Shown here: positions 11,435 to 42,181 of the stretch, piece by piece
How positions within the stretch are numbered: the first letter of the stretch is position 1
Layout: every line of letters starts with the position of its first letter
Origin: Zygnema circumcarinatum SAG 698-1b
Taxonomy: Eukaryota > Plantae > Zygnematophyceae
DNA length: 64,000 nt
NCBI GenBank assembly: GCA_037447605.1
Contig: CM074806.1
Location: forward strand, 1,054,001 to 1,118,000
Direction: 5' to 3'
The notes under the pieces: generated by a model
Databases searched by the model: none
What the model saw: the letters and a program-made list of their open reading frames with translations, nothing else
Told to the model about the DNA's origin: nothing
Position numbers and translations under genes: made by a program

Positions 11435-14400
11435 ATGGCGATGTCTCCGGGAGGTTTCAGTTTAAGGCGCGTGAAGCGAACGGACAAGCAAGATCAGGAC
11501 AAGGAGAATCGGGCGGAGTTTCCTTCTCCTTTCTCGGTTTGTGGCTCATTTCACGACAAGCTTGATGTTAATGATGCAGTAGGACATGCTCGTGGCTATT
11601 CCGTTCATAAAAACCATTTCCATACGTTGAGAGCCATGATATGGAGTCTTCCTGCTGAAGCTTGGCAGCGTCTGTTGGTCCCACTGAAGCTTGAAGAGGT
11701 TTTTCCAGGATATGTTTGATTTGATGACTTCAGGGACACTATTTCAAAAACGTTGGCTGACATGCGATTATGTTCTGGTGTCGCTTTTTCGAGTCCCTGA
11801 TATGAAAACTGAAGGGTTGATAGCTCGAACCCGCTCCGTATTTTGCAGTCTCGTAAAAAAGCCCTTGGAGGTAGAGGGCTTGGCGCTGCCGACCAGCAAT
11901 CATCACCCATGCGATTTCCAAACCAGGTCTTAGGCAGCCATTTGACAGGTGATCTAGAAACTACTCCAATACCTCACGAAAAACAAAAGAAGCGTAAGGT
12001 TTCCCAGGGCCGAAGAGTTAGCTTCGCAGACACTCTGACTGTTCATGAGTTCACAAGAGACGAGGACTACGAAATCTATGAGTTGCCAGTAGAGAAAATT
12101 GAAGTTGCAGACAGCAGTGACAAGGAGACTACCAGTCGTACAATTCCCTCTCCCCTAATAAAGAAACAAAAGGAGCAGGAAGATATTGCATTGTCTGCAC
12201 CAACTGTTGCATTATCATCTATAGAGGAGAATGGCAGAGCGCAGCCATGTACGGGCGCCTCCAACGATACAGCCGTAAGTCCTGGAATGAGACATGAAAT
12301 TGAAGCAGCTAGTTTGAATTTTCTGGACACAATCTCTTTAGAAGATGAATCGGGAACGAAGGAGGAAGAACCTGTACCAGATATGAGCCCGTTCCGATCT
12401 CCAAGAGAGCAGGAATTGCTAAATTCTCCAGCAATCAGGTATCTGGATTTCCACTCTGAACTCCCACCCCAATTTGCAGACTGACACCACCAGTTAACGG
12501 ATATGTACTGCATCATATTATTTATGTAGCACCTAGCCAGGCAGTTGCATAAGGGCATAATTGCAGCAAAAAAGTTCCGCGTAAATTGAAGTTGCTTTCC
12601 TACCTTGTCACACGGCAAGACCTTCGCGGTTTGCTGCGTCACATTGTCACCCGAAGAATAAAGGGGATAAAGGTGAACCAGGTGTATGTATGCACCAACC
12701 ACAGTTCCATGCTCTAACCCCAATCATTTCGTTGGCCATTTCAGCAAGAATGAAGACAGCCTTGAGAAGGTTGGGCCTGTTGACATGCGACTTTTCAACC
12801 CGCTTCAAGACCAGGGCGATGAAATGTTTGCAGAAGATGATACCACACAAATGAATTTGACATTCAGTGAACAAGGTGAAATAACTCGGATGATTCCAAG
12901 ATTTGAAGACCTTTTGGCGGCATACGACGAGGACACTACCATAGAAATTAGCCGTGGTCTGGAACCGGGTTTACGCAGAAAGTCTGCTGGACGGCACGAA
13001 AAGACTTCACGAACGTTTCAAGAAGAAGAAGTGCAACCGGTTCTGCATGCAGCTTCAAGACAGAGTCACCCAGAAGCGCTAGAGAGCAGTCAGATTGGAG
13101 ACGTTGGAATCGTCAAAAATGTGCCTTCTGCTAGGAGTGGAGATGATCGTACAACCCAAATTCAGCCACCAGATGATGTGCTTTTACCGGCTTATCGGCA
13201 AGCCCAAATTTTGCCAACCTCTGATTGCGTGGATAAAGGGGCGGATATAGAACGAACTGATGACAGCCAATTAATTGGTTATCAAGCTGAACGGGAAGGA
13301 GCCTCACAGCAGCTTCAGGATGGAAGACACGCACATTATGCTCATCAAGGGAAGTGCGAGCATGCCCCTGTTCATGACGATGACAAAACGTCCAAAAACC
13401 TAGATGAGGGGTCGACTTTGGCGAAGGTGGCTTGCCATTCCTTATTTCTTGAGCCCAACCTTGCTCGTAACGCTGGTCAGGGCTTGACCATGGACTTAAC
13501 ATTTTTCAAGAAGCTCGCTTTCTCTGACGGACAACGAACTTGGTGCAGGGCGTAAGCTTGTCGTAATGAATCTAGGAAGTGATGAATTGCAATAGTATCC
13601 CAGAGTTAAGGAAGGATCATGACCTATTGCCGCCGTTGGATACAACTACTGAATTTCTTAAGAACCTTCTCTCCTTGACACATGAGAAATTGCTCAAGAG
13701 AGACTTTCCTGTTAATAATCAACACTAAAAACATGCAGAGCACATTACTAAGTGAACCTTTTTTAAAAAATTCACCGCTCACGCAAGCAGATCTAAAAAA
13801 TGTTAGTACCCACAGACGTTCTCATCTGCTCGTTTTGGCTTTTATTTGAATTGCAGTTGTTGGAAGGCGAGCCACTTTGTGTATCAAGGTCGCAATCATC
13901 GGAAGATTATCCAGAACAATTTTGGGACTCTACGAGGACAATTGCAGCTGTGACCTCCAATAGTTTGCTGGCACAAGACGACGAGGTTTCGTTAAATTTA
14001 CTAGAACACCTATCCTCAAACTATGCCACAGAAGCAAGCCAGATTAAGTGTCATGGCATCAGGGCTTCAGATACCGAGCTGACGGGTGAATATGAGGTCA
14101 GTTCCTATCCAGGACGACTTGGATTCCTTGACGACTTGTGTGGTAGCATCATAAAGGGTCAACAAAAGAAGTTTTGCTGCGTAGGGAATATGTCGCGCCA
14201 AGACGTTTTTGGACTTGCTGTGTAGCTAGAAAGCCTGGTGGACGAGCTCTTCAAGTTCCAATGCTTCAATGGTTTTGGAAGAATGCTGGGCCCATGAGCA
14301 TAGTGGCAATAACGTGCTGTCTTCTGCCTGTTTGTCCGTTTCCAGGCTGCGACGGCGCAACTCCTTCAAGATCACAAGAAAGACCTGTTCAGTGGAAAGC

Positions 14401-17400
14401 AGGCGAGTTGATGTCTCCGTTCTTATTGCATGCTACCCGACATATCTTTGCATGGAATTGCATACCGAGAACCAAAATATTGGCTCAAACTTCGACACTG
14501 ATAATGTAGCGATAAAGTCACAGCCGGGATCTCCTTGTGTCAGTTGTTACAATGGGATTGGTGTTGATTGCCGACCTGAACTCCACAACACCAATGCTGA
14601 TATTGATACTGGAGCAAAATCGATTCCATTGTTTCATGAAAACAATGACATGATGGGTTCATATAGAGGAAGGCAAAGTAGCCAAGTATTGTCTGGGCAA
14701 GTTCTGATGGGTTCGGCGTTCCAAGGTGACAAGTTCGTGATCATAAATGCAGACTCATTGAGAACCCCATATTAGCTTTTATTTCATTATCCTTGGAGTG
14801 TTTATTTCTGTCGACGTGCTACAGCTTGCCTTGCCAGCATTTGATGATGCTGACTCACCTGTGCTATTGCAGCAGCTCCAAGTCCTCAAGGAGACCGTAA
14901 GGAAACTCTACGAGAAGGTCGAAAGCGAAAGATCAGTTCTGGTGTGCGGAGGAACCATTCCTTTACATTTGGGCACTGTAAGCCTATGCTTCTTCAATCG
15001 CCCATCTTTAACCCATGGATGATTCATGTGCAAAGGGTGAACTTTCAGAGTATTATGCGTGAGTTTATTTACGACCATAAATTATACTTGTGAGCTATGC
15101 GGAGAACTAAGCCACGAGGAGATTAATGAGCATATGTTCACAAAAATCGCACAATGCGCCTGAGATGAGTAAGAACGTGGTGGCCATGGCGGGAGCAGAC
15201 TCTGAATAATCAAAAGCAGCCACTGGAGGAGGAAAAGCTGACAACGATACGAAAAGCAAGCAGGTGCCTTCTCACTGGCCACCGACTCAGTTTCGTTGAA
15301 GGGGAAGACCTTGTCATTATAGTAATGTTAACATTGATCATAACGAGCACATCGTCTGGTGAAAAGCAACGGATTGATAATTTTGCACAGAAGGTCTGAA
15401 TGTAGGGCATTTCACGGGGGACAGGTTACAAGGAGCTGTTGCTATATGGAATTTCTGGGCAACCTGCCGACAACGCATGCTGCAGAGTTCGAAAGACGAT
15501 TGCGAAAAGCTTGAGGTGTGTCTCCAAAACATCTCGGCAAAATGGTGATTGATATACTGAAAGAATGGTTCTCTACCCCGAGGTTAACTTGTCTGAGTAA
15601 TGTTCAGACGCTCATTTGAGCGTGCTGGATATGTTGGATTGCAATCCAGTAAGCAATGTCGCTGGGTACCATGTGTGACTACCCTCGTGACAGATAGGAG
15701 TTTTTGAATCTGTGTTTGAGTCACCATACGAGATAGACATTTTTTTTACAGAAAACTTAACTGCTAGAAACGTGATCTGTATGGATCTTTGGCAGGAGAA
15801 AATGAGCACGCTCCATCGCAGTAGGCAGCAATGGGAGAAGTTTCACTCTCCAGGATGCCTAAGTCGTTTGGAAGAAATGGTGTCTACCAAAGAAAGGAAA
15901 CTTCTTGAGATACAAGAGCGGCGTCGGTCCTTACAAGAAGAGCATCACACTCGGAAAAGCAACATCGACCAACAGGTGTGACTTGTGATGGTTCGTGCAC
16001 GTCAGTATATAAGATTTGCGAACCTCTTGTTAGCAAAAAACTGCATATTTTGAATGATTGCCTGAATGATGAACACGTCGATTCAGCAACATATGTTATT
16101 TCTACCAAACCTCGAGCTGTGATCGGACGACGGCCTTTTGGGCATCGCAAAAATGTGGAGAGTTTCTCAAATTCACTCGGATGATGCGGTCATTCTACCA
16201 TTCAAGCATGTTTGTCCCCGAAAATGTTCTGCTTTGGACGATTTCTGACATGAAGACCGGTTTCTGCGGAATTGCTGTGAGTTTCAACAGGTCAGGGAAG
16301 TTCAGACGAGATTGCGGAGGGAAAGGCCGGAACTTGATGTCCTCGTTGAACACGTCGAGGTGCTACTCTCTTTCACATATTTTCTTATATTTTCTAAGAA
16401 CTCTATTGGCAATGTGCTGCAATGTACAGATATGATTGCTGTACGAAGAACTAACTAGTGCTGAGATGCCCGCCTCTATTTGTTTATAGAGCTCATTTTG
16501 GTCGAAGATGTATTTGCTGGGAAAATGGCAGAAGAACAAGCAGGTCTTACAAGAGGAAAATGGAAAACTGGGTGAAGAGGAAACCGAACTGCGACATCTG
16601 AGGAAGCTTACAGGGATAAGTAAAGAAGCTGTGTTGGAACCAGTCATCGGACTTCTGCCCAGCCTTCAGGTGTGTCAAAAAAACCTCATCTTTGGATATT
16701 TGATGTCTTTGTTGTCCTCCCTACAGCTGGAGGACTCCGCTGCAGCAGGTACATTTCAATTGAGTGGAGTATAGTTACATAGAAACTGTGACACATCGTG
16801 ATTGTGTGGAGTATAGTTACATCGAAACTGTGGCACATCGTGATTGTGAGCCAAATTCTTTTTTTAATTCAACTTAAAACTCATGGCATTGGCTTGTATG
16901 GAAGTATCCTTCTGATCTGTGGAGAATACCCTCTACATCCACCCCCTTAGAGGTGGACTTTCATGAGCTGAAGAGACTGACGAATGGTCTTGGCAGGCAT
17001 GGACAGTACGCAATGACGTCGTTGACGTTGAATCTCCAAAGTTGACACTCGACTTCCAAGGCTGCGTTGAGATCTGGTAAGCATCCTGATGAATTTCTTC
17101 GTGGGAAACCGCCAATGTCCGCTTTTTCTCGCAACGATGAAATGTCGTTTGACTAATTACCATTCTAACGTACCTCTCCATACAGATGGTCTTGATGGCC
17201 TTGTAATGGGTTCGCTCATGTATCTTAGCGTAACTGATAAGTGGACTCCGTTGCATTGATGGAAACAGTTTTAAAGAGGAGCGAGGCGAGAAAGACAAAT
17301 CAATTCGTCAGACGTGGAATGTCAACCAGGCCGCTCTAGAGAAGGTATACTGAAGGGGAGTTCATGACGTAAGAGCAAATGTTTCCTTTGGGTGCAACAC

Positions 17401-20066: not shown

Positions 20067-23000
20067 CTAATACGGGCGATACCGAGGAGCAGAGCGACTG
20101 ACTGGAGAAGAATACTCCGTAGTACCGGGTGGTGCATAGTCGGTATATGTTCCATACTGCAACCCAAGCCCAAATCCAAGCTGTAAACACCATGGTAACA
20201 TCCAACACATGACGGCCTCTCTTGTATCTCAGCCTCCAGCCCCTACACCAAGGCCAAAGTCTGGCAGCTACAACCAACAAGTCATAGTCATCCCACCCCC
20301 CCTCACACCTCCACCACTTCCCCACATGTTCCATCAGCAGGCAAGGGACAAGGGAAGTTACCGGAAGAGACTCCATCGGATTGCTGTAGGAAGCTGTGGC
20401 AGGGTAGAAGCTCCCTGCTCCAGTAGACGCGTGGGCCCCACGAATGGGACCTCCAATGCCTCCTGCAGCCGCGGAGCCACCAGCTCCTCCGGACCCTCCC
20501 TCTGGTGGAGTAGCACGATCGACAGCCACCTGCAGGGCTCAACGAGGCAGAATAAGGTCCCAAAACGAGAGCCTAAAGCAGCACATATAGGATAACCCAG
20601 CAAGCGTACAAAATTAAAAGTGTTAGGACTGAACAAAAAGTGTTAGGACTGGACAAGCATTCACGCCAAATTTCTCACAGGCGAAAGAAAAATATCAATC
20701 CTCCTTGCAGCGATCGGCTGCAAGTAGCTTAGTAGCACGAATCTCTCTGCCTGTCTACTTTTCAATGGCCATCACCATATCTCCGGAGTACGAAACCCAA
20801 TAGAAAAAGGCTTGCATGCGGAGCCTAGAAGCCTAAGCAACAGGGAGATCAAGCTGCACTTCAGGAGCTTACCGCACGACCGCAGATGGTATGGGGCCGA
20901 CCCGCCACAAATGCTGCAACTGCCTCCTCAACAAAAGTGACGAACCCAAAACCACGATGGGATGCCTTATTGAGTTCCTGCCAGACAAAACAAGCAATCA
21001 AGTCTGTCAAAAGTAACAATGCGGTCCATTTCCCTAACAATGGCATATCTGCGAACATTCATCACTCCCGAGAAGTGGACATACTCTCATAGGCTTGAAT
21101 CTGCACCCACCTTGGGAATGTAGACATCTTCGATAGGTCCAAAGCGACTGAAATAGTCGCGTAAGTCCTGCGAGCTCGCTTCAGCAGGCAGTTTTCCAAC
21201 AAATATTTTGGCCTCATTGGAGGGACGCACTCCATTTGCGAAGGACCCCCCAGCAGGACTGGCAACCCCTCCCGCAGCTCCATGAACGGCCCCGGGAATG
21301 CCTGCATTCATGAGACTTCCATAACCCAGCATAGGCTGCCGCCCATATGCACCATATGCTCCCGGCGACCCATATGGCATAGGAAGACGCATATCTTGCT
21401 GCCCTCGCATAGGGAAACCACCTCTGCCAAATCGTGCACTCTCATCCTGCCAAGTCACAGACATGGCAGGCAACATGGGACATTGCGTGGAACAAAGAAA
21501 TCAGAGGGAGATACGGAGGACAAGGCGAGGAATATTGGATTCCAATTAATTGCCAGATGATCGATGCCAATACGAAATGAATGCACCTGCCTTCTTTGCA
21601 GGAAGTCACAGGAAGAATGGTCAGCGCACCTTTGGAGTTGCTCGATCCACAGCGAGGGATACACCATCCATTTCATGCGTCTCTGCCATCACCTTGTCTA
21701 CCGATGCTGTACGCAGCCTCCCCATCATTGAAATAGCCCTATTTAGCTTCCATATAGACAAGGACTAGACCTTGGGGAATCCCTATTCCGCATCCTCATC
21801 GAGAAAACTACCCTGGAGCTTCTCTTTTGATAAAGCAGAAATGCAGCTTAGAATATGCTGATTGAGCAATATGACTGATTGATTGACGAGTTGATTTGAA
21901 GTGTCCAAACAAAAACTCATCATCGGCCGCAAGCAAAGACAAACAACTCTATCTGACCGCTTCTAACCTCCTCCAGATCATCAGGGAATTTCTCTGCCCA
22001 CCATCAACTGTGGCCTACAAAACATATATCAGCAAGAAAATGACAAGGACTCTGAAATAGAATCTATTGAAGGCAGAAACAATAACAGAGTAAACAGGCG
22101 GGTCATCTCTACGAAAGCTGAACAACCTGCCTAGCGTTGCATCTCAATATTAACGGGTTTAGCTTCAAGTGGAAAATGAAAGAAGAATAGGGGCAAATAA
22201 CTCAGTAACGGATAGATGTAGAACTGCCCTCAACCAGCTGCAGTAGATAGACACATACAGACTCAGGAGATTTCTGCTACCAAGACATGTCCTTGGGGAG
22301 AACAGAACCCACACTGCTATTCTCTATTGACGGATTTCGGAATGAAACTAAGTAAAGCATGTGGACAGTGGTATTCTGCACGAACACAGATGGTCAACAA
22401 CACTCCATACATATATACTATCCAAAAACGGGTTCCAATGTTCTCACTTTGTTTTTAGAATGTAGAGTATGCATCTCACAAAAAAATTGGCGCACTGCAG
22501 CATCTAATAGAGGAATTTCAAGCTTACATGATGATTCAAAAGTTACAAATCCAATGCCCCGATGAGCTTTTGAAGCTGGATCCTGCCAAGGAATACAACC
22601 GATCTCCCCAGATATTAATCGCACAACAACACTTACATTCACCTAGAAAAAGCTGGCTTCAATAATCAGGTCAAAGACCAAACAAAAATTGGCGTTCGCA
22701 ATGCACACCGAAGTCATAAAGCAAACACAAGCGGAACCACTGATCTGCATTTTTCTTACTGCTGCTGGAGACTGAGAGACAGTACCTTGGGCATGTAACA
22801 ATCGGTGACAGAACCGAATTCACCGAAATAGCTGCCAACCATTCCAAAATAGGCCAAACCCTTCCCTTTGAGTCCTTCAATATAGGTTTGCAGTTAGCTG
22901 AAGCTCTGAAGACGTTGCTCTGTAAGAGGGAGACTTTGAACAAGGTCGAAAATTGCCCACGGTGGACTGCTGCGGACCGTAAACCTATGATCCATCCTTG

Positions 23001-24439
23001 TAACTGCAAAGCTGAGGCCATAGAGCAACTGGACAAAACGATCTGAGGATGCAAGGTGTACGGACGATGCAAGACATCGCAGTTCCTGCCCAGCGGCTTA
23101 GCTGAAGGTTCGAACCTGCGAAATGCAACTTCCGTGATGCTTGGTGGAATACGTGCCACAAATATTCTCGTTGAATCAGGCTGCTTGGTCATCTCTTCCT
23201 GCAATTCCAAGTTCCAGGATTTCTTGCATTATCCTACAGGAAGCCACCACTTGGAAGCTCATCTAGCGTGGTTGCCATATCAAGTTTGCCGCATCCAAAG
23301 GGGCACTGTCAGAGAGTCTCGTCCGTGCCACCTTTCTCAGAAACAAAAGCAGAGCAAGGCCGGAAGGACGCAAGCACAGAAATGGGTACCTTCGGAGTTG
23401 CCATCTTCACCTCCAGGCGACGATCCTTCAGCATGTGTGCCTGGGCAACAGCTTTCTGCACACAACTAAGCCACAACAGGCTACATCAGGAATTGCAACT
23501 CTGAAGCGATTGGTTGCAAGGAAAGGAGGACGCGGAGGAACGCAGGTCATTGTTCATCATGTCACCTGCAAGACTTAAAAGACCACAAAAAGAAAACGAC
23601 AATAGCCAGACTAGAAAGTGCAGCAAGTCGAGATTAAATTCTCCGACATACACAAAAAATTGTACTGCAAAAAAATGGAATATAACAATCTTGCCTGAAG
23701 GAGTTTCTTGTCATGAAAACCAATTGATTTACATATACACAATCAACTAAACCGTTTTCCTGAACACCAACCAGAGATGATAGCAAACATACACGAGAAA
23801 TCTCTGGGACATTAGTTACCCCCACAAATAATGTCAAACTGCAAATCTCAATTTCCGCTGACAAAAGAGGATTGAAAAAGAAATACCTCAGCTTGTGCGG
23901 CAGTGGCAAACGTGACATATCCGAATCCTCGGGATTTCCCAGTAGCTCTATCCTGCAGAACTTGCCCATGCTCATGGTTAACAGACAGTACAGAAAGATT
24001 CTGATATAATTGCAGAAATGAAGACCAATTCCATCAGCTACGGAAAACGAAAAAGTGCAAAACGAACTAAGATCAATGAATGTCCTTTCTGTAAAGTGTA
24101 AACGAACTGAGAATTAAGCTGCCACAATAGCCGACGATACAGATCGAAAGATAAACACCTTCATGACGATAATGTCATCCATTGCTCCAAATTGTGACAT
24201 GTATTCCCGAAGCCCATCAGTTTCCACATCCCACGGGATGCCCAAAACCTGTGCATAAGCAAGACAGCATAAATTAGAAACCTCTCTAGTTCGCTGATGT
24301 TAAACGTTGGCCTAAAGCGTCCTTTGGCTGCTCAGCCAGCATTCATCAGCAGAACCGAGACCCGTTCTCCTCAAGAACACCAGAGGTTTGAAGGATGGAG
24401 ACATACCACAATCTTCCTGCCCGTGACAGAGGTTTCCAT
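20067..24439 (-). CDS. Multi-RRM RNA-binding protein (hnRNP A/Musashi-like) with a Gly/Tyr-rich tail ending RYRPY (PY-NLS-like)
   Basis: Exons read METSVTGRKIV|VLGIPWDVETDGLREYMSQFG; TRIFVARIPPSIT; HRGIGFVTF; KIFVGKLPAEASSQDLRDYFSRFG; HRGFGFVTF. Last exon ends PRYRPY*. Confidence 0.88.
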
Positions 24440-25164
24440 GGTAGAATCCAGCTTGACGGAGTGGAGTTCCTTTCCTGCAAAGCCCAGATCCTAGGCCCTC
24501 TGGCACTGCTGCCTCTCTCGACCTCGCCCTCGCTCTGGCTCTCGCCCTCGCTCGCTCGCACACGCTCCTCACTTCTGCTGCCTCTCTCGAGACCCTCAAG
24601 AGCTCTCTCTCGCCTTTCCTGCACACACAGCCGCCACTGCTGGTGAGAGCCCCTGCCCCAGGGGCCATGGCTACCGCTTCCCCGGACGGCACGACAAGAG
24701 GCAAGCGCCAGAGGAGCGAGGCAGACAGAAGCGGGCGGGACAGGAGGATCCTCTCACTCTCGCGCGCGCCCGGCCCCTTCCTCCCTCCTCTCTCAGCTCC
24801 TTTCTCCCTCCCTCCTCTCTCAGCTCCTCCTTCCTTCCCTCCCGCCCGCTCGCTAACCCCCTCCACCCCGGGCCGCTTCGGCGGCTTTCAGGCAGCTTCA
24901 GTATCGTATCGTCATATTTCATATACGCATCGTATCGTACCATATCGTATCGTATTTTAGTACAATATGTTTTTAAATCGAATACTGAATAATATTGGCA
25001 ATGAATGCCTCGATATATCTAAGTTCATATTCATGATATCGCGATCTACGTCGAGTGGGGGAGGGCCGTAGCAATCAGCACTGTACAAATCCGTACTCCG
25101 CCTCTCTAGTAAGTACAGTACAGGCAGGCAGGCATCCTCAAATAAGGGAATTATCATAAATATT

Positions 25165-25758
25165 GGAAAATGATACAGGCGCCCCACTTTTTGGATATCC
25201 GCGCCCCCTTTGGGGAAAAGAACTGTACTTTCATGTTGGCTAATCACGCCCCCCCTCCATTGGATCTTTCGGGAGGAGAGATCTTGTAGACAATCGGACC
25301 CCGCGCCTCGCGCGCAGGATCCGACCGTGCACCGACGTACGGCGCCGCGCATCGCGGCGCGGCCCGCGAGATGCGGCGAGCATGGGGGACCGGAAGCAGG
25401 GATGTCCAATGGAAGACTGCCACGTGGCAACCTCTGACCCAACCATTGGACATCCCNNNNNNNNNNGGGATGTCCAATGGTTGGGTCAGAGGTTGCCACG
25501 TGGCAGTCTTCCATTGGACATCCCTGCTTCCGGTCCCCCATGCTCGCCGCATCTCGCGGGCCGCGCCGCGATGCGCGGCGCCGTACGTCGGTGCACGGTC
25601 GGATCCTGCGCGCGAGGCGCGGGGTCCGATTGTCTACAAGATCTCTCCTCCCGAAAGATCCAATGGAGGGGGGGCGTGATTAGCCAACATGAAAGTACAG
25701 TTCTTTTCCCCAAAGGGGGCGCGGATATCCAAAAAGTGGGGCGCCTGTATCATTTTCC
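25165..25758. mobile_element. Foldback Mutator-family MITE, variant A (spans an N gap); 8-bp TSD TAAATATT
   Basis: Begins GGAAAATGATACAGGCGCCCCACTTTTTGGATATCC and ends with its reverse complement. TAAATATT at 25157-25164 and 25759-25766. Confidence 0.8.
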
Positions 25759-25767
25759 TAAATATTA

Positions 25768-27773
25768 GGAAAATGATACAGGCGCCCCACTTTTTGGATA
25801 TCCTTGCCCCTTTTCGGGAAAATTTGTACTTTCATTTTGGCTAATCTCGCCCCCCCTCTCCCTTTGTTTTTTTTTTCTCGTCCCACACATCAACGCAATT
25901 TCCTCAAACACGTTCGAATAGAGAGAGCAAAGCATAGAAGGGAGAGAGAGAGAGAAAGAGAGAGGACAAGAGAAAGAGAGAAGCAAAGCAAAGCAAGCCA
26001 ACCATTACATCATCATAGAGCTTCACATATACAATTGAGCATAATGTGAAATGAAATTAATAAAAGTAAGTAAAAAAAATATGTCAGTGAATCGTTATAC
26101 ATGTGTTGTACTGCTTAATACTTATATTTGCGGTTGCCTTTTAATGGTTAAGCACATAGGTGGGTACCGAGAGGTCCTAAGATTGAATCTTGCTAAAGGC
26201 AGTATGAATATAGGTGGGTACCGAGAGGTCCTAAGATCGAATCCTGCTGAAACTTTGATGAGGGTAGTATATGAACTTTGTTGAGGGTAGTATAAACTTT
26301 GCTGAGGGTAGGTTGTTACATAATGCATTTCAATGGAAACAAAGTGTAAACAAAGAATCAAAAGTTCTTAAAGAAAGAAAAGGTTTATTAAGCGTTTGCA
26401 CATTTGGAGCTTACAATCCTGAGTACAAAACTACAACGCTGAGCCAGCCTGCCAGAACATTCCTGAAAAAGAAGGAGGGGGGGAGAGGGGAGGGGAGGGG
26501 AGAGGAGGGAGGGAGGGGAGAAGAGGGAGAGAGGGAGGGAGGAAGGAGGAGAAACTCGCAAAAGAGTGTATATTTTAAATATAGGAGAAATTGCCTAAAT
26601 CACTTTGAACTCGACAGCCCATCCTTTGGACTTGATGTTAAGCCATAAAACAATCTATGACTAGGGAAAAGTATTGTTTTTCTTTTAATTAGTGCAAGTT
26701 CTTGAGTTGTGGCCTGGTTGCTTACAATTGGAACATTTGTTACCTTCAACATACTCAGAATAGCTCTTGTCCCAGTTGATTGCCAAACTACGTGCGCCAG
26801 TAGGTCAACCTTGTTTCTTTGTAACTAGGTGGGGGTTTTGCAACTGCAGTGGTTCAGTAACCAAAAGGTACTAAGGACCAACGTTGTTGAAGAATCATTT
26901 GCAAACAACCTACTTGTTAATGCCTTGATTGTCATTGCCTATCGTAATAATGATGATCCAATTTCAACAATTGTGGCTGTTTCTTGGACTTGGATAAAAA
27001 ATCAGCAAGGAGCGAGGAGCTTTAAAACCTTGTCATAAAGGAGCGACATCAGCAACGACCGTGTCGACATTGGCGGATGTGTCAGTGTTATCCGTGTATA
27101 GACACATCGGCATATCCAGGACATGTGGTCGCGCTTGTCGGGTGTCATCTCGTCGTCTTTGAGTGATAGGGCGTCCACTGTCATCGGTATCACCCTGACA
27201 CGTCGTTGTATGGCAAGCGACCTTAGCTCGGCGTTGGCACTCCATGAGGGCAGCGAGTTGGTGCCAATGAGTATCGTGGCCCTGATTGTGGCACTGAATG
27301 GGGGCACGGACGTCGGATCACCTCCAGTCGTGACCTTGATGTAGTGGCTGTTGACTTTACCAACGCCCAAGTCTACATCACCGCATGTGGCAACTCTGAC
27401 GGATGACAGCATCTGCACGACACTTGTCTCGACCCTGGACGTGCTCCTGGACATGATACCGCTGACATCTGCGGGTCTACAACAGCCCGCCAGCAGCACC
27501 CTCAGGCACGACATGAGCGTTGACTTACCATTGCCGCCAAGCTCGTACAGCATGGTGAAGTAAGCCGAGTCTTGTGGGTCCAACAACGCGTTGCCTATCA
27601 GCCACATCAGACACTGGTACTCCTTGTCTTGCACAAACAACCTCGACAAGTACAGGGACACCGAGCAGACGTCATCGAACACCCAGCTGACAGGGTGGTA
27701 GTCGTTGTCGATTGTCAGCCTTGAGAGTCCCGTCTTGAGCATGTGTGTACGGCTGTCGTCGTACACTTCTGCC
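25768..27773. mobile_element. Partial duplicate of the left part of the Mutator element (allelic or redundant contig), ending at a gap
   Basis: Near-identical to 29208-31223 except for a 10-bp deletion (ggacagtatg) near 26250. Contains the 3' part of the D5-like ORF (27002-27773). Confidence 0.8.
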
Positions 27774-27783
27774 NNNNNNNNNN

Positions 27784-28665
27784 AACATCAAGTCCAAAGG
27801 ATGGGCTGTCGAGTTCAAAGTGATTTAGGCAATTTCTCCTATATTTAAAATATACACTCTTTTGCGAGTTTCTCCTCCTTCCTCCCTCCCTCTCTCCCTC
27901 TTCTCCCCTCCCTCCCTCCTCTCCCCTCCCCTCCCCTCTCCCCCCCTCCTTCTTTTTCAGGAATGTTCTGGCAGGCTGGCTCAGCGTTGTAGTTTTGTAC
28001 TCAGGATTGTAAGCTCCAAATGTGCAAACGCTTAATAAACCTTTTCTTTCTTTAAGAACTTTTGATTCTTTGTTTACACTTTGTTTCCATTGAAATGCAT
28101 TATGTAACAACCTACCCTCAGCAAAGTTTATACTACCCTCAACAAAGTTCATATACTACCCTCATCAAAGTTCATACTGTCCTCAGCAGGATTCGATCTT
28201 AGGACCTCTCGGTACCCACCTATATTCATACTGCCTTTAGCAAGATTCAATCTTAGGACCTCTCGGTACCCACCTATGTGCTTAACCATTAAAAGGCAAC
28301 CGCAAATATAAGTATTAAGCAGTACAACACATGTATAACGATTCACTGACATATTTTTTTTACTTACTTTTATTAATTTCATTTCACATTATGCTCAATT
28401 GTATATGTGAAGCTCTATGATGATGTAATGGTTGGCTTGCTTTGCTTTGCTTCTCTCTTTCTCTTGTCCTCTCTCTTTCTCTCTCTCTCTCCCTTCTATG
28501 CTTTGCTCTCTCTATTCGAACGTGTTTGAGGAAATTGCGTTGATGTGTGGGACGAGAAAAAAAAAACAAAGGGAGAGGGGGGGCGAGATTAGCCAAAATG
28601 AAAGTACAAATTTTCCCGAAAAGGGGCAAGGATATCCAAAAAGTGGGGCGCCTGTATCATTTTCC
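27784..28665 (-). repeat. Inverted copy of the Mutator left end
   Basis: Reverse complement of ~29208-30089; starts immediately after an N gap. Confidence 0.85.
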
Positions 28666-28674
28666 TAATATTTA

Positions 28675-29198
28675 GGAAAATGATACAGGCGCCCCACTTT
28701 TTGGATATCCGCGCCCCCTTTCGGGAAAAAACTGTACTTTCATGTTGGCTAATCACGCCCCCCCTCCCCTTGGATCTTTCGGGAGGAGAGATCTTGTAGA
28801 CAATCGGACCCCGCGCCTCGCGCGCAGGATCCGACCGTGCTCCGACGTACGGCACCGCCCATCGCGGCGTGGCCGCGAGATGCGGCGAGCATGGGGGACC
28901 GGAAGCAGGGATGTCCAATGGAAGACTGCCACGTGGCAACCTCTGACCCAACCATTGGACATCCCTGCTTCCGGTCCCCCATGCTCGCCGCATCTCGCGG
29001 CCACGCCGCGATGGGCGGTGCCGTACGTCGGAGCACGGTCGGATCCTGCGCGCGAGGCGCGGGGTCCGATTGTCTACAAGATCTCTCCTCCCGAAAGATC
29101 CAAGGGGAGGGGGGGCGTGATTAGCCAACATGAAAGTACAGTTTTTTCCCGAAAGGGGGCGCGGATATCCAAAAAGTGGGGCGCCTGTATCATTTTCC
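28675..29198. mobile_element. Foldback Mutator-family MITE, variant B: 247-bp arms around a 30-bp loop
   Basis: Arms at 28675-28921 and 28952-29198 are reverse complements. The loop contains TGCCACGTGGCA. Arms share the TIR and the gatctttcgggaggagagatctt block with the right end of the large element. Confidence 0.85.
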
Positions 29199-29574
29199 TA
29201 AATATTAGGAAAATGATACAGGCGCCCCACTTTTTGGATATCCTTGCCCCTTTTCGGGAAAATTTGTACTTTCATTTTGGCTAATCTCGCCCCCCCTCTC
29301 CCTTTGTTTTTTTTTTCTCGTCCCACACATCAACGCAATTTCCTCAAACACGTTCGAATAGAGAGAGCAAAGCATAGAAGGGAGAGAGAGAGAGAAAGAG
29401 AGAGGACAAGAGAAAGAGAGAAGCAAAGCAAAGCAAGCCAACCATTACATCATCATAGAGCTTCACATATACAATTGAGCATAATGTGAAATGAAATTAA
29501 TAAAAGTAAGTAAAAAAAATATGTCAGTGAATCGTTATACATGTGTTGTACTGCTTAATACTTATATTTGCGGT

Positions 29575-29760
29575 TGCCTTTTAATGGTTAAGCACATAGG
29601 TGGGTACCGAGAGGTCCTAAGATTGAATCTTGCTAAAGGCAGTATGAATATAGGTGGGTACCGAGAGGTCCTAAGATCGAATCCTGCTGAGGACAGTATG
29701 AACTTTGATGAGGGTAGTATATGAACTTTGTTGAGGGTAGTATAAACTTTGCTGAGGGTA
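29575..29760 (+). repeat. Internal tandem repeats of the MULE (54 bp x2, ~23 bp x3); first unit is tRNA-like
   Basis: ataggtgggtaccgagaggtcctaagat(t/c)gaatc occurs twice; tat(g/a)aactttg.tgagggtag occurs three times. Confidence 0.7.
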
Positions 29761-30134
29761 GGTTGTTACATAATGCATTTCAATGGAAACAAAGTGTAAA
29801 CAAAGAATCAAAAGTTCTTAAAGAAAGAAAAGGTTTATTAAGCGTTTGCACATTTGGAGCTTACAATCCTGAGTACAAAACTACAACGCTGAGCCAGCCT
29901 GCCAGAACATTCCTGAAAAAGAAGGAGGGGGGGAGAGGGGAGGGGAGGGGAGAGGAGGGAGGGAGGGGAGAAGAGGGAGAGAGGGAGGGAGGAAGGAGGA
30001 GAAACTCGCAAAAGAGTGTATATTTTAAATATAGGAGAAATTGCCTAAATCACTTTGAACTCGACAGCCCATCCTTTGGACTTGATGTTAAGCCATAAAA
30101 CAATCTATGACTAGGGAAAAGTATTGTTTTTCTT

Positions 30135-30478
30135 TTAATTAGTGCAAGTTCTTGAGTTGTGGCCTGGTTGCTTACAATTGGAACATTTGTTACCTTCAAC
30201 ATACTCAGAATAGCTCTTGTCCCAGTTGATTGCCAAACTACGTGCGCCAGTAGGTCAACCTTGTTTCTTTGTAACTAGGTGGGGGTTTTGCAACTGCAGT
30301 GGTTCAGTAACCAAAAGGTACTAAGGACCAACGTTGTTGAAGAATCATTTGCAAACAACCTACTTGTTAATGCCTTGATTGTCATTGCCTATCGTAATAA
30401 TGATGATCCAATTTCAACAATTGTGGCTGTTTCTTGGACTTGGATAAAAAATCAGCAAGGAGCGAGGAGCTTTAAAAC
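30135..30478 (-). pseudogene. MULE transposase C-terminal remnant with CCHC zinc knuckle
   Basis: Minus frame reads LQNPHLVTKKQG*PTGARS...EYVEGNKCSNCKQPGHNSRTCTN*: a KGRP-like motif plus the CxxCxxxGHNxRTC knuckle typical of Mutator transposase ends, with an in-frame stop. Confidence 0.8.
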
Positions 30479-31642
30479 CTTGTCATAAAGGAGCGACATC
30501 AGCAACGACCGTGTCGACATTGGCGGATGTGTCAGTGTTATCCGTGTATAGACACATCGGCATATCCAGGACATGTGGTCGCGCTTGTCGGGTGTCATCT
30601 CGTCGTCTTTGAGTGATAGGGCGTCCACTGTCATCGGTATCACCCTGACACGTCGTTGTATGGCAAGCGACCTTAGCTCGGCGTTGGCACTCCATGAGGG
30701 CAGCGAGTTGGTGCCAATGAGTATCGTGGCCCTGATTGTGGCACTGAATGGGGGCACGGACGTCGGATCACCTCCAGTCGTGACCTTGATGTAGTGGCTG
30801 TTGACTTTACCAACGCCCAAGTCTACATCACCGCATGTGGCAACTCTGACGGATGACAGCATCTGCACGACACTTGTCTCGACCCTGGACGTGCTCCTGG
30901 ACATGATACCGCTGACATCTGCGGGTCTACAACAGCCCGCCAGCAGCACCCTCAGGCACGACATGAGCGTTGACTTACCATTGCCGCCAAGCTCGTACAG
31001 CATGGTGAAGTAAGCCGAGTCTTGTGGGTCCAACAACGCGTTGCCTATCAGCCACATCAGACACTGGTACTCCTTGTCTTGCACAAACAACCTCGACAAG
31101 TACAGGGACACCGAGCAGACGTCATCGAACACCCAGCTGACAGGGTGGTAGTCGTTGTCGATTGTCAGCCTTGAGAGTCCCGTCTTGAGCATGTGTGTAC
31201 GGCTGTCGTCGTACACTTCTGCCTGCTCGAACAACAGCTTGTCGTCTGCTAGTGTAACCTTATACCTAACGCTGCCAACACAGACACTGATTGGCAGTGA
31301 CGACACCACTAGCGCGTTCTTCTCCAGTAGTCTTAGATATGGCCTGACTGCCGTCGTGTAGTTGACCGTGGCATTACTGGCACCCACGGCGCGTGTCAGC
31401 TCCACTTGTGCCTCCTCCGACACAATATTAGACCACTCATTGAGCGATGACAAGTACAACAGGATGTCGCCTTTATACTTGACGACATTGCCCAGTTCCA
31501 CAAGCCTGCCCAGGGCGTTAGACTCATTTGTAGCCCGTCTCAGTACTGTCGACAAGCCACTTGACACTTCAGATGTGTCCATGATGATAGTTGCAGAGGG
31601 GGCAGCTTCACAGCGAAGGAGTGGCAAGTCAGACACCACCAT
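30452..31642 (-). CDS. D5-like superfamily-3 helicase, virus-like, intronless, probably C-terminally truncated
   Basis: 396-aa ORF with Walker A FTMLYELGGNGKST, Walker B-like VATCGD, motif C ILIGTNSLP and arginine finger AIQRRVRVIPM. The last ~8 codons read into MULE DNA. Confidence 0.8.
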   Translation of the reverse strand: MVVSDLPLLRCEAAPSATIIMDTSEVSSGLSTVLRRATNESNALGRLVELGNVVKYKGDILLYLSSLNEWSNIVSEEAQVELTRAVGASNATVNYTTAVRPYLRLLEKNALVVSSLPISVCVGSVRYKVTLADDKLLFEQAEVYDDSRTHMLKTGLSRLTIDNDYHPVSWVFDDVCSVSLYLSRLFVQDKEYQCLMWLIGNALLDPQDSAYFTMLYELGGNGKSTLMSCLRVLLAGCCRPADVSGIMSRSTSRVETSVVQMLSSVRVATCGDVDLGVGKVNSHYIKVTTGGDPTSVPPFSATIRATILIGTNSLPSWSANAELRSLAIQRRVRVIPMTVDALSLKDDEMTPDKRDHMSWICRCVYTRITLTHPPMSTRSLLMSLLYDKVLKLLAPC

Positions 31643-31653
31643 CCAGCACCGTC

Positions 31654-32202
31654 ATGGAGGCCGTAGACACCGCAGTGAGACAAGGGTGGAGACTAGAGTG
31701 GGTAGGACAGACTGGCGACATGTGTGTTCTGGTAAGACTAATGAAGGAGGGCCTTGACGACATGTACATACGGCTGACAGTGCCTGTAGACACGCCGTCA
31801 ACATGCGTCGACTACGGTGTCGTGTCCAGGCCCGAGTCAGACGACCAGGGTGTTGATGTCGCCTTAGTGTGGCACTGTCAGCCGTGGCTGAGACTCAGGC
31901 GTAACGCCGCCATACACGGCCTGACTACTGGGTCAGAGCCAAGGTGTGGCTACGTCAAGTGGCAGCCACAGACAATGACACGGTGTATCATGGGCTACGA
32001 CTTTGAGACTAACAGCCTGGGACTACACAAGGGTAGCCTGCCACCAGCGTCAAGGGACGTCGTCTGTGCCACGTTGTGGTGTACGTGCGGGGTGACGGCG
32101 TCATGGCACACGATGGGCACTAGTAGCCAGTTGGTCAAAGTGGGGGACACTCAATCAAATGGTGGTTTAACCACCATATTGCTGATTGATGTTTATGAGT
32201 AA
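31654..32202 (+). pseudogene. N-terminal fragment of a family-B DNA polymerase (start of 3'-5' exonuclease domain), virus-like
   Basis: RCIMGYDFETNSLGLHKGSLPPASRDVVCATLW resembles the ExoI block of RNA-primed PolB (LxFDIE..G.FP....D.V). Truncated near 32140, where MULE sequence resumes. Confidence 0.6.
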
Positions 32203-33480
32203 GATTTTTTCGCCTTTGTCCAAGATCGTTGAAATACGATGCTTACAAGGAGCCCCCAAGTTGAAGTAAATACTCCACTATAAAGCCCTAATGTTGTCGC
32301 TTTCAACTTTGAAACTAGCTTATGCAACCCTTCTAAATGCAGCCTTTCTAAATACGGTTACTTGTAATAAAGACAAATAAAAAACTTCTCAGTTTTAATT
32401 ATTTGCTTAAGCTCGACAAACTGGATTTAGAGCATCAGATTTAGCTGTTGGAAAACTGTAAACAAATTAAGAGTTAGAATTTAGATGTACCGCTTTAGGA
32501 GATGATGGTTTCCCTCCCCACGAGATGTGGAACCCATTCCCAATTGCATGTTCTTGTCGACAAAACATCTAACAAACTTATCCCAATGCTCTTGCTTCTA
32601 CACGTAATGAAAGGCAAACGTCCATCCCCGCGAGCCAAAGTAACTCTCATCGCTACCCAGTTGCCATAATAAGTTTCTTCTATAGTGGAATATAGGCACG
32701 CATTCCACATCTTCATAAATGTCTCAAACTCATTATTGTCCTCGAAATGCTTCTTAGTGTTTGCAAGCACGTTTTTATTAACGTGCCATACACACAAAAT
32801 ATTCATAGTGTCAGGAAAGACTTCTGAGATTGCGTTCATCAACGCTAATTCACGATCAGTAGCGACAAACTTAGGTATTACTATAACACGGAATGCTTAC
32901 AAGGCCCAAACGTATGCATCCTTTGTTTCTTCCCGTAAAATATTAAAAATCGAATAAGTGGCAATGATTCTAATAATGTTCAGCAAAGGCATTCCAAATT
33001 AGACATTGTTGTACTCATTCGCAAGCTTGGCTGAGTCTCGATGAGTAAAGAACAAACTTGAAACAGCACCGTCGATCCCAAAACTAACTTCAAAGATGAA
33101 ATTACCAGCGCTTAGGGTTTCAATTAAGGCTATAATGTGGGTTCAACCAACCAAGAGATTTGTCCTAAATAGAGCAATGTCATTGTACACTACTCTTTTG
33201 GTCATATGTTGGTTCTCGTACTGGTTTTGGAAAGTAAACATTATGGATGGAATGCTGGCGCCATTTTGTGCATCTCTCGAACATATTCCTTCTCGCGAGT
33301 ATTCAAGCGCCTTTTCTTGGCATATCCACTGGAAATAACGTGGTTGTGCTCTTCAATGATGGATTTTACAGCCCATATGTTCTTCTTCTTAGAAAACGTC
33401 GATCTTGAAAGGGCAATTTTTCAAGCGGCTAGAGGTATGCCTGTTCTTTCCGGTCTCTTCTTGACCTCTATCCCTTCCCC
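32150..33480 (-). pseudogene. MULE (FAR1/Hop-like) transposase, 5' part, frameshifted with stops
   Basis: Fragments SSRLKNCPF..IWAVKSIIEEHNH (FAR1/WRKY-like), FVATDRELALMNAISEVFPDTMNILCVWHVNKNV (DDE core with CxxH) and a frameshifted SGVFTSTWG.PCKHRI. Confidence 0.88.
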
Positions 33481-33734
33481 TTGACCTTTATTCAGGGGAA
33501 GGGAGGGGAAGGGTGGGGCGGGGAGGGGAGGGGAGAGCACGGGCGGGGAGGGGAGAAGATCTCTCCTCCCGAAAGATCAGGGGGGGACCGAGATTAGCCA
33601 AAATGAAAGTATAAAATTTTCCCGAAGGGGGGCGAGGATATCCAAAAAGTGGGGCGACTGTATCATTTTCCAAATATGATCGTAAATAGCTAATTTATGG
33701 CTCAAATTGAGATTAATATTATTATGAAATAATA

Positions 33735-39400: not shown

Positions 39401-42181
39401 CTGAACTCCACTGTGTGGCTGCATGTATATGGGCAGAATGTGCCCCCTGCACTGCTCATCCGCTTCTTGAGAGACCATCGTTCAGAGTGGGCGGATGGCG
39501 ATATTGATGCAAATTCTGCAGCGGCTGTGCAAGCGAGCTTGGTGGGGAGGGCCGATGGCAGCAATGGGCAGGTCCCTCTGCCATTGGCATATGCCGTGGA
39601 TCAGGAGGAGGTGGGTCTTTTCCAACTGATTACATCTTTGGTAGAGGAGTGTGGTCGCTACTTTGGCCTCCAATTCGGCTTCACTATCGCTACATACTTT
39701 CTCAATTTGAAGTAGCTGGGGAGACATGGGACTTTGGAGCTAGTAGACTTAAGGTTTGCTTTTTCATTATTATGATTCGTAAAATTCTTCCTGAACTTGG
39801 ATGGACATATGATCTGGCTGCACTGAGGTAAATTATTTGGAATGAAAACGTGCTTTTGGTCTTTTTGAGGCTGGTCAATGTACGGTTAAAGATTAATTTT
39901 GTTCCAGATGATGGAACAGCACATGGATATTGATTAAAGGCCTTTTCAGAGGAGGCAACAGACTCCTAATGGTAATATCTGAACATTGGGAGGGAGGGCA
40001 TGGGACGGGGAAGGCAGTTCTTGGAGCTGGTGAAGCTTGAGGGGCATAGTCAGGAGCAAGATGGCAGCCTTATGCCGAGGGAAACCTTCCTCTTGCAGGT
40101 AACACATATTGAGTGAGGAAAGGAGACTCTGTCAGTGTAACCTATGTGTTTTTTATGTCCGTCCCTTTTTTCATTTTTACTTCTCTTTGCGTAGCAGTTG
40201 TGAGGGGTCAATTCATGCTATTGTGTTGTGGCGCAGTTATCTTCAAAATGTGGATGTTCCTTTTTTGTGTCGCTTTGTAGCTGTTAAATTCGTATGTGGA
40301 GGTCTTTAAGAAGCTGCATCTCTTTGAGTTAAAAGGCTGTACAACTTTTTGCGGTTCATCTCTCAGGCGAAGGAAGTGGCTTACGAGCTGCCGTGTAAAT
40401 AGATCGGCCAGTCACCTTAGAAGTGTATGCCTCATGTAAAAAAAAAAAAAAAACCCAAGGAATTTCTCTGTTTGCGAACTCAAAATGTTTGACCTGGGTT
40501 TCTTACCTTTTAATCCTCTCTTTGTTCTCTACTTCTGCAGCTCTGCAGCGGAGTAGATGAGACAGCTGTTGCGATGGCTCAGCTCGTGTTCGCTCCCGTG
40601 GATGCAGCCTCAACAGCAGATACCGTACCCCTCCTTCCTTCTGGGTTTCGAGTCATCCCTTTGGAATCCGGCCCTACAGTGAGAACAATTCTTCTTGTTC
40701 TTGTTCTTGTTCTTGTTCTTGTTCTTCTTGTTCTTGTTCTCCTTCTACTTCTTCTTCTTGTTCTTGTTCTTGTTCTTCTTCTTCTTCTTCTTCTTCTTCT
40801 TCTTCTTGTTGATCTTCTTTGAATCGTGTTTGTCTATTCAAGGGCTCTCCCCTGCCGGATGCTCTGCTGAAGTTCAAAGTCTTCTCAATGTATTGATATT
40901 TGGTTTCAATTTCTCCAGGAGAGGCCCGGGCAGCCGTCAGTGCGAACACTGGACCTCGCATCTGCATTGGAAGGGCAGTCAGAAGGAGGGAGACAGGGAG
41001 ACGCATCAGCTTCTAGGCTCCGTTCTGTGCTCACTATTGCCTTCCAATTCGCATATGAAGGACCCACAAGGGATGCTGTGGCAATAGTTGCGAGGCAATA
41101 TGTTCGTTCAGTGGTGGCCTCCGTGCAAAGGGTAGCTTTGGCCCTTGCTCCTTCACCACATAGTGTTGTGGACCATCCTGCCCTGACTACTAGCAATTCT
41201 GAGGCTATGATGGTCCTCTCTCACCGGGTCCTTCAGAGCTACAGGTTAGCAGCTTTCCTGAGCTGGATTGGTCAGTTTGGGACGTTAACCAGCTGCATTT
41301 CCTCTCGTTTTCATGATCATGCCTCTCTGCTTCGATCCCTTTGGCAGGTGTTAGCCATAGCATAGCAATAACATGTCACTGTTCCACCATTCCTACAGGC
41401 TGTTTTTGGGAATGGACCTTGTGCGGATAGACCCCTCTTTGAGCGGGGAAGCGGTCTTTAAGTCGTTCTGGGAATATGCAGACCCCATCATCTGTGTTGC
41501 CTGGAAGGTGAGGACAGAGAGCCCTATGACTGTCGCAGTAGGCAAATGCTTGAGAGGGTTGAATGGGCATGAAAGGAGCATCTAATGTCTGTTAAAAATG
41601 TGTTTCCAAGGTTGTGCATTGGATGGCAGTCGGCATGCTGCAATTGCTTTTGTTCCGAGAGGGTTTATGATTGCGGAGATATTGCAAAGTGACCTTCATG
41701 GATACAGTTCTGATTTTGAGCACTGACTTTTGAATGACTGGCAGATGTCTCCGGAGCTTTTGTTCGCTAACCAGGCTGGTCTTGCAATGCTGGAGACTTC
41801 GACAATGGGATTGGCTGAGATTCCTTGGGAGAAAACGTATAACGAAGAGGGAGCAAAGGCAGCGTATTCTGCACTTTCTCAGGTCATGCAGCAGGTGAGA
41901 AAGGAAAGGAAAGGCAACCGAGTTCTGAAACTTCTGTTCAGCTTTCCTCCAAGGAATCCAAACCAGCTTGATCTTGCTTGCAAGTGCGATATGTTTGGCT
42001 TACCCGTTTCCTCATTTGCTTCTGAGTGCAGGGCTATGCCTACCTTTCCCCAGGCATCCGAATATCTGCAACCGGTCGAGCTGCACGCTACGAACGGGGG
42101 GTAGCGTGGAAAGTGGTGGACGAGGAAGACAACCTCAAATTCATTGCGTGCATGCACATGCAGTGGTCGTTTGTGAGCTAA
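35270..42181 (+). CDS. C3HDZ: Class III HD-ZIP transcription factor (homeodomain, leucine zipper, START, HD-SAD, MEKHLA); multi-exon
   Basis: DSGKYVRYSNDQVEALERVYHECPKPSSMRRQQLIKECPILANIEPKQIKVWFQNRR|CRE; MYAPTTLAPPRDFCTLRY; GFNEAVNGFADD; RTLDLASALE; FANQAGLAMLET...QWSFVS*. Confidence 0.97.
36431..36475 (+). repeat. CAG/CAA repeat encoding 15 Gln
   Basis: (cag)4(caa)5(cag)4(caa)2 in a predicted coding exon. Confidence 0.85.
40689..40810. repeat. Intronic (TTC/TTG)n microsatellite
   Basis: ttcttg/ttc run directly after the donor at ~40679. Confidence 0.95.

Follow-up and report, generated by a model that had tools for sequence, protein, structure and literature searches.

A fossil helicase–polymerase gene pair in a MULE of Zygnema circumcarinatum, and its probable origin in an unclassified family of compact DNA viruses

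Two replication genes lie head to head in a 64,000-nt stretch of the genome of Zygnema circumcarinatum SAG 698-1b (contig CM074806.1, positions 1,054,001 to 1,118,000; hereafter the window), and their crowding raises the question of what kind of element donated them. An initial annotation, made from the letters alone, attributed the pair to a divergent, compact DNA virus or self-replicating element that infects streptophyte algae, with perhaps a fuller copy elsewhere in the genome. Its main proposal, an unidentified compact donor, is supported overall. The locus itself is an inert fossil, probably a dead 1.7-kb fragment, lodged in a MULE, from an unclassified family of compact (~26–29 kb) eukaryotic dsDNA viruses. 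This family of compact DNA replicons is deep and apparently uncatalogued, and its members are most likely viruses with a eukaryotic host.

The insert and its host transposon

The two reading frames begin where they were initially placed, at an ATG at 31642 on the minus strand (an alternative lies at 31582) and at an ATG at 31654 on the plus strand, and the claimed spacing of 11 bp is borne out (Table 1). Neither frame has an intron, as proposed: each aligns as a single ORF to intronless homologues. The helicase frame is the longest stop-free frame of the window (399 codons stop to stop; 295 for the runner-up). The plus-strand ORF measures 182 aa, not the 183 first reported, and its final ~17–20 aa are filler and transposon sequence. 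The GC content of the insert is 55%, against 39% in both flanks.

Table 1. Features of the helicase–polymerase insert and of the surrounding MULE, in window coordinates
Feature	Position	Strand	Remarks
Partial duplicate of left flank and helicase 3' half	26650..27773	-	100% identical; ends at a 10-N gap
TIR-like arm	29202..29265		92% complementary to 33614–33677; the arms bracket MULE and insert
3' continuation of the MULE	30100..30449	-	Contiguous with the 5' part in copies without the insert
Foreign insert, about 1.71 kb	30450..32162		Within the MULE transposase gene; filler-like stretches of ~20 bp at both ends
SF3/D5-type helicase ORF (P0001, 396 aa)	30452..31642	-	Without primase domain; last ~57 family residues gone
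Spacer between the divergent ATGs, 11 bp	31643..31653
5' quarter of RNA-primed family-B DNA polymerase (P0002)	31654..32202	+	N-terminal domain and ExoI motif
Decayed MULE transposase gene, 5' part	32163..33400	-	Multi-copy in the genome; PF10551 at 32495–32896, E 7.9e-8
TIR-like arm, other end of the MULE-like unit	33614..33677

A setting absent from the initial annotation emerges from three lines of evidence. First, a MULE transposase domain scoring above the PF10551 cut-off lies between TIR-like arms. Second, other copies of this MULE lack the insert: in three of the four runs position 30449 is joined to 32178, with 16 letters in the joint resembling 32160–32175, and further empty sites join 30449 to 32219 and 30411 to 32219. 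Third, both the left junction (30361–30809) and the right junction (30803–32278) are crossed by contigs in three runs (X1, X2, X6), and in X7 and X11 contigs cross at least one of the two; X6, X7 and X11 come from three studies, none marked as a possible source. Thus, the gene pair is an insert in the MULE transposase gene. The stretch or part of it occurs in 20 of the 24 listed runs, all under one organism label, and no RNA run is among those containing it. No target-site duplication was found by eye around the insert, and small in-frame gaps lie near both of its ends. Foreign genes joined to host DNA, an empty site elsewhere and decay are together the features of an endogenous viral element.

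Pack-MULEs carry foreign coding fragments between their TIR arms. Here, in contrast, cargo of viral type has split the transposase gene, and contig depth suggests a single copy of it.

The helicase and the polymerase

The minus-strand ORF (P0001) is a primase-less SF3/D5-type helicase, with an AAA+ SF3 domain, a Walker A motif and a D5-like fold. Only the C-terminal part of TIGR01613 matches it (E 1.3e-14, below the family cut-off), phage primase-helicase PHROGs match residues about 180–350 through their C-termini, and it has no match in Pfam or among PDB sequences. The fold of its model (pLDDT only 50, thus of low confidence) matches poxvirus D5/E5, SaPI and giant-virus D5-like helicases, with a best Foldseek E of 6e-8 against E5/D5/SaPI; primase-less D5-like proteins of giant viruses and of a virophage are also among the matches. 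As initially noted, no primase domain is present: Walker A lies ~216 residues from the start. Thirteen other unfused relatives listed have 212–252 residues ahead of Walker A, too few to hold a primase, so that its absence is a property of the family; the corresponding length is 467–471 in three primase-helicase fusions. P0001 is moreover truncated, with 171 residues after Walker A versus 227–235 in 12 full-length relatives, and a glycine just before Walker A, kept in all 16 other aligned rows, is replaced.

The relatives of P0001, which make up three of the four matches in a sequence search, are all unannotated and 25–45% identical to it. A profile search returned 20 matches, 15 of them family members and the other five primase-helicases (E 7e-12 or weaker). 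A quick tree was built from 20 rows, with P0016, P0019 and cluster mates left out. All 15 family rows group together in it with a support of 100; their branch is very long, and the outgroup of five primase-helicases lies far away. One member, P0017, bears an N-terminal NADAR domain (PF08719, E 2.9e-39), a possible fusion, which hints that viruses related to the donor may carry conflict genes based on ADP-ribosylation.

The plus-strand ORF (P0002) encodes the first ~165 aa of an RNA-primed family-B polymerase that is compact, at 704–732 aa in full. The initial annotation had named a lack of similarity to PolB exonucleases as the outcome that would count against it; the ORF is instead confirmed as a PolB N-terminus. 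It aligns with its family from residue 1 (P0042 begins at the same place) to about residue 162–167. Alignment with P0028 shows an in-frame gap of 11 codons, beyond which homology stops near 32140; the frame then enters transposon sequence and ends at a stop. The ExoI motif YDFET had been placed ~115 aa from the start, and its aspartate is indeed residue 116. This position is a family trait, found at 110–130 in homologues that keep their N-terminus, without being unique to the family: the N-terminal domain of the family model aligns with those of RB69 and archaeal PolBs. Of the features of a PolB, the window carries only the N-terminal domain and ExoI; since ExoII/III, palm, fingers and thumb are missing, the fragment is unable to make a polymerase.

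The family was reached through a full HMMER search alone. Against 1.84 billion representatives, P0002 gave 18 matches at E up to 0.001, of which 17 belong to one family; the remaining one, P0039, is a TPR/NB-ARC protein and was dropped as unrelated. P0002 has no Pfam match and only chance matches among PDB sequences (E 0.77 or worse), a word-indexed search for longer homologues retained none of 582 candidates, and an Atlas search gave unnamed clusters at 0.91, no more than a lead. Against a profile that leaves out the window sequence, and whose rows had been found using P0002 as query, P0002 scores 130.7 bits versus at most 2.9 bits for 200 shuffles.

Six full-length members (704–732 aa), mutually 28–36% identical, define the enzyme. 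PF00136 matches all six (E 6e-32 to 9e-40), PF03175 only one and below the cut-off, and their exonuclease (Exo I–III) and palm (A–C) motifs look intact. The model of P0028 (pLDDT 84.5) adopts a PolB fold: over nearly the whole chain it aligns with the PolBs of HSV-1 (Z 24.3), Pyrococcus (22.5) and RB69 (20.8), versus 12.7 for phi29. In this structural comparison the HSV-1 polymerase ranks first (15% identity), with archaeal and phage PolBs not far behind. The best 50 BFVD viral polymerases are at most 18% identical to the full-length members in structural alignment; the top ones are phage polymerases, and none is a close match. The nearest Atlas clusters to a full-length member, by model features, are mostly phage and bacterial, and the best profile matches include archaeal PolBs and the phage PolB phrog_262. 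Collectively, the Z-scores and the low identity to named PolBs point to a compact enzyme, RNA-primed and probably a lineage apart, and not to a Polinton PolB.

Relatives, donor genome size and a second copy

Both gene families are deep and known only from unannotated metagenome and Logan assemblies. Successive scans of IMG/VR yielded no relative among 3, 10, 13, 1 and 4 candidates. In 185,579 prokaryote genomes none of seven candidates belongs to the family, and six further weak loci were not matched by the family profiles; 50,697 phage and 72,556 plasmid records hold no family member, PolB identity being at most ~25% among the matches listed. A metagenome scan with a generic Walker A pattern, covering 45 of 64 parts, returned 80 loci with ordinary primase-helicases and none with a family PolB, a result that is no evidence of the family's absence there. 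In the literature searched, no title or opening of an abstract describes the gene family, although subscription papers or bioRxiv supplements might contain a description. The available portions of PMC7544198, 10.64898/2026.10.13.758929, PMC12344493, 10.1101/2025.04.19.649669 and PMC4889955 describe no small eukaryotic virus that combines an RNA-primed PolB with a stand-alone SF3 helicase.

The initial annotation had also named homologues that are never syntenic as evidence that would weigh against it. Instead, a single contig probably carries the best homologues of both genes: P0003, the best helicase match, and P0054, a cluster mate of the best PolB match, each lie on a contig of 5,555 nt with ENA among the sources, and these records are probably one and the same. 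The evidence is circumstantial. Under a rough length model, the chance of a 5,555-nt match is ~2.5e-4 for these three pairs, and that of any length match among the ~55 x 27 possible helicase/PolB pairs is ~0.12. Synteny is here read from this single length match.

Contig sizes recur among the relatives. In one helicase cluster 7 of 11 members lie on contigs of 27,173–29,320 nt, in another both members lie on contigs of 28,479 and 29,182 nt, and one further family member is on a 26.7-kb contig; three of six members of a PolB cluster are on contigs of 26,550–26,552 nt. This recurrence suggests a unit genome of 26–29 kb for the donor and agrees with the compactness initially claimed for it. The 27–29-kb helicase contigs belong to a sub-clade only 27–29% identical to P0001 and known from the helicase alone, and the counts of equal-sized contigs are inflated by repeated assembly of one strain. 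Equal sizes can alternatively reflect such repeated assembly altogether, or an integrated element bounded by repeats. Among the matches listed, no contig with an intact relative exceeds 29.3 kb. Together with the separate lineage of the PolB and the separate clade of the helicase, the ~27-kb contigs support a divergent, compact DNA virus or self-replicating element as donor.

Several homologues end early, as decayed integrated copies would. P0018, P0101, the P0019 cluster and the P0035 cluster are of this kind, some on contigs of 174,957 and 56,608 nt or in many assemblies, and may be endogenous copies in other hosts.

A second copy of the helicase exists in the same organism, on contigs 84–87% identical to positions 30483–31526 of the insert (43 differences in 327 nt; 110 in 688 nt). 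Among the 40 of 168 differences between the copies that were listed individually, 26 fall at third codon positions (p 4e-5), as do 13 of 16 transversions, and 23 of the differing codons are synonymous versus 13 non-synonymous. These excesses indicate that the copies diverged as working genes, and they likely entered as separate integrations from related, functional viruses. In the second copy, C>T plus G>A changes outnumber the reverse (89 vs 36), which suggests that it is the older one; by context, 16 such changes fall at 8 CG, 4 CHG and 4 CHH sites, out of 44, 41 and 92 sites, a distribution that is suggestive only.

Beyond 30483 the second copy reads on in frame for nine codons, gapless by eye against the C-terminal segment of the family, on a contig that extends 2.9 kb further. 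Past 31526 homology persists, with 18 of 30 letters shared, but a stop codon intervenes. The locus also has a 354-bp internal duplication, with a 2-bp deletion in one arm. For the PolB part, six runs yielded no second copy at 80% identity or more, a cut-off that does not cover a more diverged one. The fuller copy foreseen elsewhere in the genome is therefore present only in part: a second helicase reads past the break seen in the window, but it is more decayed and has no second PolB at that identity.

Origin of the donor and alternative readings

The donor is read as a virus from gene types, compactness and contig sizes, and a mechanism can be proposed for it. In the donor, a hexameric, primase-less SF3 helicase would open the genome and a proofreading, primer-dependent PolB of 700–730 aa would copy it. 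As a primase is present in 98% of polymerase-encoding viruses, according to the accessible sections of PMC4889955, the virus is predicted either to have a separate primase gene of its own that supplies the primers, or to obtain them from the host nucleus. Given the narrow gap between the two starts, the promoter of each gene would sit within the opposite gene. In the host, viral DNA in the nucleus may have been patched into a double-strand break of a MULE copy by end-joining repair, an event expected to leave a little filler on either side and no trace of an integrase; break-repair capture is here read from junction anatomy alone. A related virus, ~85% identical, would have integrated separately and probably earlier. 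The fossil ties the family to a eukaryotic, probably algal, host, and the two integrations make streptophyte algae plausible hosts of the donor, as initially suggested.

It is tempting to go further and propose, with somewhat less than even confidence, an undescribed high-rank group of eukaryotic dsDNA viruses of 26–29 kb, outside Polisuviricotina, Nucleocytoviricota and Mirusviricota and missed by IMG/VR, some of which infect the algal relatives of land plants. A ~27-kb family with its own RNA-primed PolB, whose members are 28–36% identical, would represent an ancient lineage that virus catalogues lack, and proteins such as P0028, P0042, P0003 and P0054 offer a direct route to complete genomes.

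Among the closest known systems are Polintons, PLVs and mavirus-type virophages (Polisuviricotina), which, in the part of 10.64898/2026.10.13.758929 at hand, are of like size, place a stand-alone SF3 helicase beside a B-family polymerase and integrate in protist and algal genomes. That part also scores stand-alone SF3 helicases on a polisuvirus PolB tree whose PolBs are protein-primed, and lists protein-primed PolB, PolA, AEP or Rep as the replicases of small eukaryotic dsDNA viruses of such size; according to section 24 of PMC4889955, viruses with small genomes are less likely to carry genes for replication proteins. The donor PolB is, in contrast, of the PF00136 type, with PF03175 below cut-off and a Z-score of 12.7 to phi29 versus 20–24 to RNA-primed enzymes, and neither a protein-primed PolB nor a PolA/AEP-helicase replicase was found. 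Polintons and their kin also possess a DJR capsid, an ATPase and an integrase, whereas the donor family is known here from replication genes alone.

This gene content, the lack of IMG/VR relatives and the early-ending homologues on long contigs (175 kb and 56.6 kb) are also what might be expected of a replicon that has no capsid and copies itself with an RNA-primed PolB and an SF3 helicase, be it a self-synthesizing transposon or a plasmid of the nucleus or cytoplasm. Such a donor is unlikely. A size of 26–29 kb far exceeds the ~3.5 kb of two replication genes and fits a virion gene set, and the copies diverged under purifying selection with no intact multi-copy family at at least 80% identity, a pattern that fits repeated entry from outside better than internal spread.

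Rather less likely still is a slice of a large virus of known type (Nucleocytoviricota, mirusvirus or nudivirus-like) with strongly diverged replication genes. The Nucleocytoviricota module likewise combines an RNA-primed PolB with a D5-type SF3 helicase, the helicase fold matches primase-less D5-like proteins of giant viruses and of a virophage, and Nucleocytoviricota are endogenised in algae and early land plants, including giant-virus regions in streptophytes (10.1101/2025.04.19.649669, in its available part). Their PolB is delta-like, however, and their D5 protein a primase-helicase with an N-terminal AEP primase, while the PolBs described here have 704–732 aa and at most 18% identity to the best 50 BFVD polymerases, and the helicase has no room for a primase ahead of Walker A. 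As primase-less D5-like proteins occur in some NCLDV, the missing primase is not decisive alone; intact relatives on contigs of ~27 kb, at most 29.3 kb among the matches listed, and the lack of an IMG/VR relative also speak against a large virus. Typical of Nucleocytoviricota are also a PolB of the EukVir1/2 clades and the core genes MCP, A32 and VLTF3. Mirusviricota and Herpesvirales have an HK97 capsid, a terminase, a portal and a large delta-like PolB; that the HSV-1 polymerase is the top structural match, at 15% identity, speaks for a large virus.

Improbable, too, is the capture by the alga of DNA from a bacterial or archaeal virus or plasmid. Intronless, tightly packed genes would suit such a donor, as would the best profile matches, which are archaeal PolBs, the phage PolB phrog_262 and the C-termini of phage primase-helicases. 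HelPrimPolB and T4-like or archaeal PolBs, as covered by the available text of PMC7544198 and PMC4889955, share the short N-terminal domain before ExoI and an SF3 helicase acting with PolB. HelPrimPolB is a fusion, whereas the present genes are separate, divergent and, as a pair, without primase, and no family member occurs in the prokaryote genomes, IMG/VR, phage or plasmid records searched. Two separate integrations of phage DNA in one nuclear genome would moreover be unusual. A compact eukaryotic virus stays the favoured donor. An assembly chimera or a contaminant joined to host DNA, to which the N gaps, the perfect 1,138-nt inverted repeat and the 100% duplicate nearby might point, is very improbable: the contigs described above, which span both junctions in three runs and at least one in two others, already largely refute it.

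The duplicate at 26650–27773 is itself probably an assembly artefact, because it is 100% identical, ends at an N gap and is not accompanied by a doubled depth (insert versus diverged copy: 55 vs 40–45, 75 vs 65–68 and 32 vs 20–32); a true tandem duplication was judged unlikely. The inverted repeat (27784–28921 and 28952–30089) starts from the N gap and is centred on a GC-rich palindromic repeat; together with a 99% duplicate at 25511–27773, it looks like a short-read mis-assembly. Near-perfect palindromic elements of ~600 nt, MITE- or foldback-like, lie at 25160–25763 and 28670–29265 and share their ends with the MULE TIR-like arm at 33582–33696.

Its richness in introns marks the host neighbourhood as eukaryotic, and its genes include a C2 gene resembling synaptotagmin (6151–8821, minus strand) and an RRM gene (21087–24113, minus strand). 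A further host gene at 11813–14775 (plus strand), with long exons and an RRVSF motif, may be KNL1-like, although Pfam lends this no support. Simple and 30-bp tandem repeats occur at 40677–40844 and 59787–60072.
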